A stretch of 64,000 nucleotides of DNA. Source: Escherichia coli. GTDB taxonomy: Bacteria; Pseudomonadota; Gammaproteobacteria; Enterobacterales; Enterobacteriaceae. This document shows, one piece after another, positions 47,479 to 50,257 of this stretch; the stretch's first letter is position 1; every line of letters begins with the position of its first letter. The stretch lies in the NCBI RefSeq assembly GCF_003334255.1, contig NZ_QOWU01000021.1. The stretch is one strand, 5' to 3'. Under the pieces are notes generated by a model. It worked only from the letters and a program-made list of their open reading frames with translations, made no database searches and was not told where the DNA came from. Position numbers and translations under genes: made by a program.

Positions 47479-49104
47479 ATGAATATTTTCACAGAGGCTG
47501 CAAAACTCGAAGAGCAAAATTGTCCGTTTGCTATGGCGCAAATTGTTGATAGCCGAGGCTCGACTCCCCGCCATTCTGCACAAATGTTAGTGCGCGCCGA
47601 TGGTTCTATCGTCGGTACAATTGGTGGCGGAATGGTTGAGCGGAAGGTGATTGAAGAGTCGCTTCAGGCATTGCAGGAACGTAAGCCGCGATTATTCCAT
47701 GGACGTATGGCTCGTAACGGTGCGGATGCTGTCGGGTCAGATTGTGGAGGTGCAATGTCAGTATTTATCAGCGTCCATGGTATGCGTCCACGTCTGGTGT
47801 TGATTGGCGCGGGGCATGTCAACCGGGCGATAGCCCAGAGTGCGGCGCTATTAGGATTTGATATTGCCGTTGCTGATATTTATCGCGAAAGCCTCAATCC
47901 TGAACTATTCCCACCATCAACCACGCTTCTCCATGCTGAGTCGTTTGGTGCGGCAGTGGAAGCACTGGATATTCGCCCTGATAATTTTGTCCTGATTGCC
48001 ACGAATAATCAGGATCGTGAAGCCCTCGACAAACTCATTGAACAGCCCATTGCATGGTTGGGGTTGCTGGCAAGTCGTCGCAAGGTTCAGCTTTTCCTGC
48101 GTCAATTGCGTGAGAAAGGCGTGGCTGAAGAACATATTGCCCGTTTACATGCGCCCGTTGGTTACAACATAGGTGCGGAAACGCCGCAGGAGATCGCCAT
48201 CAGCGTGCTGGCAGAAATATTACAGGTGAAAAATAACGCGCCGGGTGGGCTGATGATGAAACCTTCTCATCCTTCCGGACACCAGCTGGTGGTGATTCGC
48301 GGTGCGGGAGATATCGCCAGTGGTGTGGCGCTACGTCTGTATCATGCGGGTTTTAAAGTGATCATGCTGGAAGTGGAAAAACCGACAGTGATTCGTTGTA
48401 CCGTGGCGTTTGCCCAGGCCGTGTTCGATGGCGAAATGACGGTCGAAGGCGTCACTGCTCGCCTGGCAACCAGCTCTGCGGAAGCGATGAAACTTACCGA
48501 ACGCGGATTCATTCCTGTGATGGTAGATCCCGCCTGTTCATTGCTTGATGAACTGAAACCGCTTTGCGTGGTGGACGCTATTCTGGCGAAACAGAATTTG
48601 GGAACGCGGGCAGATATGGCACCAGTAACAATCGCGCTTGGGCCGGGCTTTACTGCTGGGAAGGATTGTCATGCGGTAATTGAAACAAATCGCGGGCACT
48701 GGCTCGGTCAGGTGATTTACTCTGGTTGTGCGCAGGAGAATACCGGTGTTCCTGGCAATATTATGGGGCATACCACCCGACGGGTGATCCGTGCTCCTGC
48801 TGCAGGCATTATGCGATCCAACGTGAAATTAGGCGATCTGGTGAAAGAGGGCGATGTGATTGCCTGGATTGGTGAGCATGAAATTAAAGCACCGTTGACG
48901 GGGATGGTGCGTGGCTTGTTGAACGACGGCCTGGCAGTGGTTGGTGGTTTTAAAATTGGTGATATCGATCCTCGTGGTGAAACCGCTGATTTCACCAGCG
49001 TTTCTGATAAAGCCCGGGCGATTGGCGGCGGCGTACTTGAGGCGTTAATGATGTTGATGCATCAGGGCGTGAAAGCGACAAAAGAAGTGCTGGAAGTGGC
49101 TTAA
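47479..49104 (+). CDS. yqeB: XdhC/CoxI-family maturation protein YqeB
   Basis: 541-aa ORF MNIFTEAAKLEEQNCPFAMAQIVDSRGSTPRHSAQMLV... Confidence 0.88.
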   Translation: MNIFTEAAKLEEQNCPFAMAQIVDSRGSTPRHSAQMLVRADGSIVGTIGGGMVERKVIEESLQALQERKPRLFHGRMARNGADAVGSDCGGAMSVFISVHGMRPRLVLIGAGHVNRAIAQSAALLGFDIAVADIYRESLNPELFPPSTTLLHAESFGAAVEALDIRPDNFVLIATNNQDREALDKLIEQPIAWLGLLASRRKVQLFLRQLREKGVAEEHIARLHAPVGYNIGAETPQEIAISVLAEILQVKNNAPGGLMMKPSHPSGHQLVVIRGAGDIASGVALRLYHAGFKVIMLEVEKPTVIRCTVAFAQAVFDGEMTVEGVTARLATSSAEAMKLTERGFIPVMVDPACSLLDELKPLCVVDAILAKQNLGTRADMAPVTIALGPGFTAGKDCHAVIETNRGHWLGQVIYSGCAQENTGVPGNIMGHTTRRVIRAPAAGIMRSNVKLGDLVKEGDVIAWIGEHEIKAPLTGMVRGLLNDGLAVVGGFKIGDIDPRGETADFTSVSDKARAIGGGVLEALMMLMHQGVKATKEVLEVA

Positions 49105-49111
49105 ATGAAAA

Positions 49112-49319
49112 TGGCCGGATGGTATTACCCACCCGGCCTGAGACTGATGACAAACGCCAAATTGCCTGATGCGCTACGCTTATCAGGCCTACAAGTGCAT
49201 TGCAATCTATTGAATTTGCGATGTTTTGTAGGACGGATAAGGCGCTCGCGCCGCATCCGGCATCAACAAAGCGCACTTACTTGACAATCTTTGGCCGGAT
49301 GGTATTACCCACCCGGCCT
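49112..49319. repeat. two REP elements bracketed by a perfect 28-bp direct repeat (tggccggatggtattacccacccggcct)
   Basis: direct repeat copies at 49112-49139 and 49292-49319; REPs gcctgatgcgctacgcttatcaggcctac (49164-49192) and gtaggacggataaggcgctcgcgccgcatccggca (49228-49262). Confidence 0.8.
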
Positions 49320-49324
49320 TTAAA

Positions 49325-50257
49325 TTACTGACAAATCACCGTTCCTGTTTTGCCTTCAATCCCTTCTTTCGCTTTGCTCAATACGGTAATCAGTGCTTCA
49401 CGACCTGCGCGAGAGCGAGCAAACGAGGCGGCAGCTTCCACTTTAGGCAGCATAGAACCTTTCGCAAAATGACCTTCTTCGATAAAGCGTTCAGCATCAC
49501 TTAATGACAGGCGATCGAGCCACTGTTCATTCTCTTTACCGAAGTTAATGGCCACTTTTTCTACCGCAGTCAGAATGATCAGCATATCGGCATCAATCAT
49601 TTCTGCTAAACGGGCGCTGGCCCAGTCTTTATCGATAACCGCGCTGGCACCACGCAGATGGTTACCTTCACGAATAACAGGGATACCACCACCGCCAACG
49701 GTGATCACCACCTGACCTGCATCTACCAGAGCTTTAACCGTTTCTTTTTCAATGATATCAACCGGTTTTGGCGAGGCAACAACACGGCGATAGCCGCGAC
49801 CAGCATCTTCTTTCAGAGTGTAACCCTGTTTTGTCAGTTGCTCTGCTTCTTGCTCGGTAAAGAACGAACCGATCGGCTTGGTCGGGTTGAGGAATGCCGG
49901 ATCGTTAGCGTCGACTTCGACCTGAGTAACCAGCGTTGCTACAGGTTTATTAATGCCCCGAGAAAGCAGTTCTTCTCTTAAAGCGTTTTGTAGATCGTAA
50001 CCAATATAACCCTGGCTTAATGCAACACAGACAGACATCGGCAGCATTGGCGAGTGCGCTTCAGTTTTTGCGGCAGCTTCAAAGGCCTGGTTAATCATGC
50101 CCACCTGCGGCCCGTTACCATGAGTGACGATAACTTCATGTCCCTGGGCAATTAAATCAACAATTGCCTGAGAAGTAATTTTTACCGCTTTCATTTGCCC
50201 GGCCAGGTCATCGCCCAGCGCATTCCCGCCCAGGGCGAGAACAATTTTCTTACTCAT
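49325..50257 (-). CDS. yqeA: carbamate kinase-like protein YqeA
   Basis: 310-aa ORF MSKKIVLALGGNALGDDLAGQMKAVKITSQAIVDLIAQGHEVIVTHGNGPQVG... Confidence 0.9.
   Translation of the reverse strand: MSKKIVLALGGNALGDDLAGQMKAVKITSQAIVDLIAQGHEVIVTHGNGPQVGMINQAFEAAAKTEAHSPMLPMSVCVALSQGYIGYDLQNALREELLSRGINKPVATLVTQVEVDANDPAFLNPTKPIGSFFTEQEAEQLTKQGYTLKEDAGRGYRRVVASPKPVDIIEKETVKALVDAGQVVITVGGGGIPVIREGNHLRGASAVIDKDWASARLAEMIDADMLIILTAVEKVAINFGKENEQWLDRLSLSDAERFIEEGHFAKGSMLPKVEAAASFARSRAGREALITVLSKAKEGIEGKTGTVICQ

Follow-up and report, generated by a model that had tools for sequence, protein, structure and literature searches.

Probable insertion of a BIME-1 element at a terminator hairpin between yqeB and yqeA of Escherichia coli, with duplication of the palindromic target

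We analysed a 64,000-nucleotide stretch of Escherichia coli DNA (called the window throughout), in which the convergent genes yqeB and yqeA are separated by a bacterial interspersed mosaic element of type 1 (BIME-1), lying between two identical 28-bp hairpin sequences. Very probably, the BIME-1 was inserted at a single terminator hairpin shared by the two genes, and the two 28-mers are its target-site duplication. Among BIME-1 copies we observed precise unit ends, either orientation of the unit, a target duplication adjoining both ends, a marked association with terminator-like palindromes, and clean loss of the insert with the target restored. The yqeB-yqeA pair of 28-mers is the most perfect example found of this family-wide insertion signature. 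The parts of the insertion in the window are:

49112-49139, plus strand: left 28-bp palindromic hairpin, copy 1 of the probable target-site duplication (exact repeat, fold and terminator scan)
49140-49291, plus strand: complete 152-bp BIME-1 unit, a long imperfect palindrome and the inserted element (absent together with one 28-mer in empty alleles)
49292-49319, plus strand: right 28-bp hairpin, copy 2 of the probable target-site duplication (exact repeat, fold and alignment)

The 28-mer TGGCCGGATGGTATTACCCACCCGGCCT occurs exactly at both positions, as the first-pass annotation of the window had reported together with the flanking genes; both copies are on the plus strand, with 180 bp from start to start. 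The repeat is exactly 28 bp long, the adjoining outer bases being different (A/T on the 5' side and G/T on the 3' side). No third match was detected in the window with up to three mismatches allowed, and dinucleotide-preserving shuffles gave a match in 0 of 100 cases. The hairpin potential ascribed to each copy was confirmed by computed folds on both strands: the RNA stem-loop has -16.7 kcal/mol on the plus strand and -22.6 kcal/mol on the minus strand (z-scores -3 to -6), and the A-C mismatch in the plus-strand stem is a G-U pair on the minus strand. An inverted arrangement of the copies is ruled out by the asymmetric loop TATTAC and the A-C mismatch, which have the same orientation in both; the flanking hairpins are likewise direct and not inverted at two other loci (L030 and L022).

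The yqeB-yqeA region of the window is 100% identical to that of K-12 DH10B and BL21(DE3), and this filled allele coexists with an empty one in the species. We aligned empty-allele representatives (strains ECONIH4, SF-468, WP7-S18-ESBL-09 and 2018-05-5CC) and found them exactly 180 bp (152+28) shorter, with a single 28-mer and no BIME, and O157 strains have a locus span of 571 bp that matches the empty alleles. The comparison of orthologous sites proposed in the first-pass annotation therefore gave one copy of the 28-mer in the empty site, not two. The genome-wide search that it also proposed detected the 28-mer in 5,167 of the 5,426 complete E. coli genomes, at 6,815 places, never more than twice per genome and always at the yqeB-yqeA locus, which rules out a dispersed repeat. 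According to these counts, about 1,648 genomes are filled and about 3,519 are empty, and a search with the left junction was consistent with this. The left-junction query alone is confounded by the native flank TTACTGACAAA, which resembles the left end of the unit, and the filled count was taken from the 28-mer census; by megablast, empty alleles extend across the left junction to query position 70 with 93% identity. The likeness of the native flank past the hairpin (49320-49340, TTAAATTACTGACAAATCACC, the end of yqeA) to the left end of the unit (49140-49157, GAGACTGATGACAAACGCC) is probably due to chance.

Minor sequence variants of the hairpins were also seen. ST69 (L005) has a 1-bp deletion in the left hairpin copy only, in strain WP7-S18-ESBL-09 (L004) the loop of the only hairpin contains a 1-bp insertion, and in the B2 strain SF-468 (L003) a C to T change in the hairpin gives a perfect stem on the plus strand. 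Strain 2018-05-5CC lacks the insert and has flanks equal to those of K-12, including the T equivalent to 49347 that is absent from the other sampled empty alleles, which fits a secondary precise loss of 180 bp.

The direction of the change was examined in outgroup spacers, located through YqeA homologues and their contigs. The orthologous spacer of Pseudocitrobacter corydidari, Trabulsiella odontotermitis and a relative with 91%-identical YqeA is 37-53 bp long and holds one GC-rich hairpin and no BIME. Because three outgroup lineages hold this arrangement, the sequence comparison indicates that one hairpin is the ancestral state and hairpin-unit-hairpin the derived one. The idea put forward in the first-pass annotation, that insertion of a repetitive extragenic palindromic (REP) or BIME sequence had duplicated a pre-existing hairpin, is thus upheld by the empty alleles and by these three lineages.

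In Escherichia whittamii (L087, 3127-3283) the unit is present at the orthologous yqeB-yqeA site, in the same orientation and with a closely similar linker. Its right half was deleted between GGCCGGAT in the Z-type REP and GGCCGGAT in the right hairpin, and the surviving right hairpin has the loop GTGTCGA, as against TATTAC in the window. Since E. whittamii carries the insertion, some of the E. coli empty alleles are probably secondary losses. Another relative, represented by Logan SRR1773638 (L078, 2434-2536; YqeA 95% identical), has a different, shorter REP pair at yqeB-yqeA, apparently placed between two hairpin arms (TCGCCGGCGG ... CGCCAGCGGCGA) and not between two whole copies.

The left end of the unit was sought with an exact 22-base pattern in 100,044 species, each represented by one genome; this gave 66 loci in Escherichia and Pseudocitrobacter and, in addition, two spurious matches. 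Most of these copies have a locus-specific GC-rich stem-loop directly at both unit ends. Orthologues were collapsed and array-internal junctions set aside, leaving 32 independent loci. Junction-anchored direct repeats with a score of at least 12 were found at 14 of the 32 loci; they are 16-30 bp long and all form stem-loops (-10 to -19 kcal/mol), while mismatched pairs of left and right flanks, used as the control, had such repeats in 0 of 992 cases. At the 14 duplicated loci the gap between the left copy and the unit is 0-1 nt, and that between AATCT and the start of the right copy is 0-3 nt. The ends of the long repeats lie 0-2 nt from the stem base at all 14 loci, and because of this coincidence what is repeated is the palindrome itself. 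Three further loci have anchored repeats that are short (5-8 bp; null rate 1.3%). A stable hairpin adjoins the unit at the left end in 21 loci, at the right end in 21, at both ends in 16 and at one end or more in 26 of the 32.

These controls also bear on a chance likeness of two unrelated terminator hairpins, one for each of the convergent genes. GC-rich hairpins are common at convergent gene pairs, but the 28/28 identity that includes the asymmetric loop and the A-C mismatch, the 0/100 matches in shuffles, the 0/992 in mismatched pairs and the single copy in empty alleles have already refuted such an origin.

At older insertions (narP-ccmH, L007 405-615; L048; L042; L036; L015/L028/L051) the stems of the two flanking hairpins are identical or compensated and the loops are quite different, for instance ATTTAT and CATCAC in the narP-ccmH hairpins. 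A 184-bp contig assigned to Bacillus coahuilensis m4-4 (L046) carries an Escherichia-type BIME-1 locus orthologous to L015/L028/L051 and is probably contamination. The match in a Patescibacteria metagenome-assembled genome (L077) was rejected as a chance hit of the pattern with no REP structure.

Independent pairs of filled and empty alleles were found at other loci. The empty allele of narP-ccmH is 176 bp shorter and has the right-hand hairpin only, and at rutG-ymdF the empty allele falls 174 bp short of the filled one of K-12 and has one hairpin. Downstream of dppA, where the insertion point has no hairpin, the empty allele is 157 bp shorter (152+5) and has one CATAC, and the filled allele has CATAC on both sides. 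The length of the duplication depends on the target: ordinary sequence is duplicated over a few bases, and a terminator over its entire palindrome. At rutG-ymdF, K-12 (L085 255-470) and strain SCPM-O-B-8794 (L030 1500-1830) are both filled, with the hairpin duplicated in both and the units pointing in opposite directions (the reverse complement aligns with a score of 97, the forward strand with 38); these are either two independent hot-spot insertions or one inversion in place between palindromic flanks, and opposite orientations are expected for a symmetric target. The narP-ccmH insertion also occurs in the divergent E69 lineage (L050). The right flank of the zapB locus (L029) is not conserved in other genomes, and this locus is hence uninformative.

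The allele pairs, taken with the diversity of the hairpins, are relevant to the suggestion, also made in the first-pass annotation, of a composite repeat unit containing the hairpin. In such a case the ancestral unit would include its hairpins, the one-hairpin alleles would be only deletions, and the 28-mers would be uninformative on insertion. The sharing of insertions with E. whittamii (yqeB-yqeA) and with the E69 lineage (narP-ccmH), by which many empty alleles may be secondary losses, the one clear secondary loss in strain 2018-05-5CC, and the 'excisions' of whole BIME-1 reportedly mentioned in the abstract of Bachellier et al. in 1997 would all agree with it. By the account in PMC1187871, what Bachellier et al. 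found was the presence or absence of BIME-1 among isolates. We nevertheless regard the ancestral composite as very improbable, and the suggestion did not hold: the 152-bp unit is constant and recurs with different locus-specific hairpins, the yqeB-yqeA 28-mer is found nowhere else in any E. coli genome searched, and the 5-bp non-hairpin duplication at dppA is present once in the empty alleles. In outgroup genera the orthologous site has one hairpin, of a related type, which largely refutes the ancestral composite.

The prevailing model of REP/BIME mobility is duplication-free, single-strand insertion of the IS200/IS605 type (PMC3333891, PMC2817692, PMC3116915), and it could be reconciled with our data if the unit was inserted beside the hairpin and the hairpin was duplicated later in a separate event. 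That course appears highly unlikely as well, since it needs an exactly abutting second event at no fewer than 14 independent loci and in both orientations, and the expected intermediate, a complete unit with an unduplicated target and an intact hairpin on one side only, was not found among the alleles of the four polymorphic loci.

We return to insertion with target duplication. Its possible mechanism would involve integration through two staggered single-strand cuts, offset by the length of the duplication. The target palindrome may be extruded as a hairpin or cruciform and cut at its two feet. A palindrome gives the same structure on both strands, and cutting at a fixed place relative to the hairpin foot would put the cuts at the two feet; in an alternative geometry, a short stagger across the four-way junction of the extruded cruciform would do the same. 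Repair synthesis would then copy the whole palindrome to both sides of the insert. That an extruded palindrome receives staggered cuts, one at each foot, is a plausible reading of the products, which we propose tentatively. More doubtful, yet possible, is the general proposal that BIME-1 integrates into duplex DNA by a short staggered cut and is drawn to extruded terminator palindromes, in place of the duplication-free route assumed for REP doublets (REPINs).

The insert may be lost by replication slippage between the direct repeats at the base of the long palindrome, which would restore the one-hairpin site. The perfect direct repeats at the palindrome base would therefore make precise loss possible, and this possibility would account for the clean presence/absence polymorphism. 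It would also fit the whole BIME-1 elements that some E. coli isolates have and others lack (PMC1187871). Precise excision of Tn10 and Tn5 proceeds through slippage deletion between direct repeats at the base of long inverted repeats. As in that process, the 180-bp loss removes the insert and one repeat copy and restores the original site; the direct repeats here differ in being 16-30 bp long and themselves palindromic.

Replication template switching, and not cutting by a transposase, is an unlikely source of the hairpin-unit-hairpin structure, though several observations would agree with it. A fork would stall at the terminator hairpin, the nascent strand with the copied hairpin would switch through microhomology to a BIME-1 elsewhere, and the BIME-1 would be copied along its own long hairpin, from one foot to the other, after which synthesis would resume on the original template at a point upstream of the terminator hairpin. 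The length of the duplication varies (5-30 bp) and is tied to hairpins, the semi-conserved T and A just outside the unit could be microhomology or carry-over from a donor, the tandem arrays of Escherichia sp. MOD1-EC7003 described below hold hairpins seemingly foreign to their locus, and intermediates of BIME transposition have never been observed (bioRxiv 10.1101/2024.07.17.603846). However, the unit ends are nucleotide-exact at dozens of loci in both orientations, which is typical of ends defined by an enzyme and unusual for microhomology; the conserved terminal inverted repeats likewise argue against template switching, as do duplications that at all 14 loci end 0-2 nt from the base of the stem.

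The obvious candidate enzyme for the cutting is the REP-associated tyrosine (Y1) transposase, which has no direct support from these data. It binds and cleaves REP/BIME DNA in vitro (PMC3333891), and a cognate gene for this transposase (RAYT) was reported for E. coli K-12 (PMC3333891). The IS200/IS605-like model of its action involves single strands and no target duplication (PMC3333891, PMC2817692).

Several points weigh against the insertion and cutting scheme proposed here. The cut geometry is deduced from the products only. The accepted IS200/IS605-like model makes no duplication, so that either this model is inapplicable to BIME-1 or the repeats were made in another way. The reported C|T preference of the transposase (TnpA-REP) was inconsistent at the hairpin feet, with C|A on the bottom strand at yqeB-yqeA and G|T at rutG-ymdF, and because the preference is not consistently present there, the sequences give no support for TnpA-REP. 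The sample was ascertained by the exact 22-base pattern of the left end and covers Escherichia and Pseudocitrobacter only, and 15 of the 32 copies have no recognisable flank duplication, which could be the result of decay or of a different insertion route. In the old copies with matched stems and diverged loops, the limitation of the changes to the loop is not what neutral divergence by itself would produce. The insertion is common to E. coli and E. whittamii, and hence either old or acquired through recombinational exchange, and even so the K-12 copies are identical at 28/28 bases, which needs low divergence, gene conversion or selection.

To our knowledge, the mechanism of REP/BIME spread has been unsettled since the discovery of these sequences in the early 1980s, and no insertion event has been reconstructed so far. 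The current model rests on the analogy to IS200/IS605 and on the in vitro cleavage by the REP-associated transposase. The pairs of filled and empty alleles at four loci, together with the flank analysis, provide a product signature of precise ends, either orientation and a duplication equal to the terminator palindrome. With this signature, the possible chemistry narrows to two staggered cuts made in a target that is duplex or cruciform; the signature also explains why BIME-1 is found at the 3' ends of genes with termination not destroyed, and its clean gain/loss polymorphism. If the scheme is true, intrinsic terminators would be safe-harbour targets at which insertion regenerates the target on both sides, seeds tandem arrays and leaves termination intact, and the long direct repeats would be a built-in route to precise loss.

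The window copy belongs to BIME-1, a type in which a Y and a Z REP are inverted around a long conserved linker with an IHF site (PMC3333891), and which is present or absent among E. coli isolates (PMC1187871). Like other BIME-1 members, it is a single extragenic copy of about 140-150 bp at the 3' ends of transcription units, and the element itself shows no difference from them; it is an ordinary, already catalogued member of a class also called RIP/RIB type or REPIN. The element and its presence/absence polymorphism are already known. A duplicated hairpin or terminator flanking a REP/BIME was not described in the full-text literature that we searched, a scope that did not extend to the BIME papers of 1991-1999; should the flanking repeats already be on record in the papers of the 1990s, the novelty lies in their quantification and in the connection to a mechanism. 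Touzain et al. report direct repeats at the flanks of about 10% of small variable segments (PMC2884548).

Compared with known mobile systems, the window unit is similar to the REPIN-RAYT system in being a REP doublet able to fold as a single long hairpin; REPINs are vertically inherited, with a low rate of duplication and with precise excisions (PMC3116915; bioRxiv 10.1101/2021.07.10.451892). Terminal inverted repeats and duplications are both absent from the IS200/IS605 paradigm, whereas the BIME-1 units here have inverted terminal motifs and duplications of 5-30 bp. The Correia/NEMIS elements of Neisseria, which are MITEs (miniature inverted-repeat transposable elements), resemble the unit in their size (about 100-200 bp), non-coding sequence, terminal inverted repeats, long hairpin and target duplications, and also carry an IHF site (PMC3184786). 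MITEs in general have a short duplication of fixed length (e.g., TA), determined by a known family of DDE transposases, while the duplication here is 5-30 bp long and follows the size of the target palindrome.

We know of no parent insertion sequence (IS) with the ends of this unit; an autonomous IS with these ends was not seen in the fetched loci, and no dedicated search of an IS library was made. IS186, an autonomous element of the IS4 family, uses GC-rich palindromic targets and makes target-dependent duplications of about 6-12 bp, and we mention it as a lead only. It is like the unit in having a GC-rich, hairpin-like target and a duplication length that depends on the target, and unlike it in its unrelated ends.

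The 152-bp unit is composed of the following parts:

49140-49162, plus strand: left terminal motif GAGACTGATGACAAACGCCAAAT, forming an imperfect terminal inverted repeat with the right end (family consensus and inverted match)
49163-49192, plus strand: Y-type REP or palindromic unit TGCCTGATGCGCTACGCTTATCAGGCCTAC (sequence; hairpin of -13.2 kcal/mol; inverted repeat with the foot of the Z-type REP)
49193-49227, no strand assigned: long linker (L motif) of 35 bp (putative IHF-like site; core conserved in the family)
49228-49262, minus strand: Z-type REP in inverted orientation GTAGGACGGATAAGGCGCTCGCGCCGCATCCGGCA (sequence; hairpin of -14.4 kcal/mol)
49263-49291, plus strand: right terminal motif TCAACAAAGCGCACTTACTTGACAATCTT, diverged from the family consensus ...GCGCACTTTGTCAACAATCTG

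The first-pass annotation described the 28-mers as bracketing two REP elements, and the two REPs are indeed there as an inverted Y and Z; however, the repeated unit is the whole 152 bp and not the REPs alone. The same unit ends were found at narP-ccmH, entD-fepA, rutG-ymdF, dppA and about 60 other places, and the narP-ccmH and entD-fepA copies align with the window unit over its full length, end to end. When 65 copies are aligned, conservation falls from about 90% to about 50% directly outside GAGACTG...AATCTG, and the adjoining bases are semi-conserved (T before GAGACTG and A after AATCTG). The left-end consensus of the family, GAGACTGATGACAAACGC, is conserved at about 90% or more per column, a value that in part reflects the search pattern itself; this left terminal motif is probably one of the external A/B motifs of the BIME literature. 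In the family consensus, the terminal inverted repeats are about 15 nt long and imperfect (GAGACTGATGACAAA vs CAGATTGTTGACAAA, the reverse complement of the right end; 12/15 matches), and the right end of the window copy has diverged further from the terminal inverted repeat than the family consensus. A putative IHF site, ATTCAATAGATTG, at 49203-49215 on the minus strand has one mismatch to WATCAANNNNTTR, and its core GCAATCTATTGAATTTGC is about 90% conserved in the family. As single-stranded DNA, the segment 49105-49326 is predicted to fold into one long hairpin (-46.2 kcal/mol, z -5.3).

In the Rfam search, matches were detected at 49185-49227 on the minus strand and at 49231-49267 on the plus strand, to the ES036 (CssrF) small RNA, with 36.3 bits and so slightly below the gathering score of 37.6, and to naRNA4, with 27 bits. 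The two matches lie on the BIME linker and REP, which suggests that these small RNA families are REP/BIME-derived sequence.

The unit is a single extragenic copy with no tandem array and lies between the stop codons of the two neighbouring genes:

47479-49104, plus strand: yqeB coding sequence, convergent with yqeA (open reading frame; annotated yqeB in identical RefSeq records)
49325-50257, minus strand: yqeA coding sequence, carbamate kinase-like (open reading frame; annotated arcC/carbamate kinase; PF00696 homologues)

The terminator scan of this region gave one match, the left 28-mer read on the minus strand (49138 to 49113), with a stem of 10 pairs followed by ATTTTCATTT. Because it is the sole terminator-like site here, the left 28-mer with ATTTTCATTT is the predicted yqeA terminator, now distal to the insert. 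On the plus strand the stem has the A-C mismatch (-16.7 kcal/mol) and the tail of the right copy, TTTAAATT, is weak; the right copy retains its native 3' context, TTTAAATTA, which runs into the yqeA stop codon. In the empty allele the hairpin and the T-run come directly after yqeA. In the filled allele, transcription of yqeA would meet in turn the right copy, which has no T-run, the BIME, and the left copy with its T-run. The rightward T-tract in its native 3' context would stay with the right copy and the leftward T-tract with the left copy. Since the native T-tracts and 3' contexts stay with their respective copies, the insertion is predicted to preserve the termination signals, and the BIME would become 3' untranslated region, clearly so for yqeA.

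In Escherichia sp. MOD1-EC7003, unit and hairpin are repeated together in tandem arrays (period 167-173 bp), and within some of the arrays several different hairpins occur. The arrays lie at:

L061, 7577-8285
L075, 104-974
L062, 4358-5052
L064, 735-1104
L071, 9758-9951

At several loci one and the same hairpin, GAGGCCGGGTTCGGCCT, stands between the MOD1-EC7003 units, and L058 has it as its duplicated target as well. It seems that a unit can take one of its flanking hairpins along to a new site, or else that duplicated hairpins can serve again as targets. In the NarS study, a 170-nt insertion relative to Salmonella was described near the narK stop codon of E. coli (PMC7038943); its size, and its size only, fits one unit plus a duplicated hairpin.

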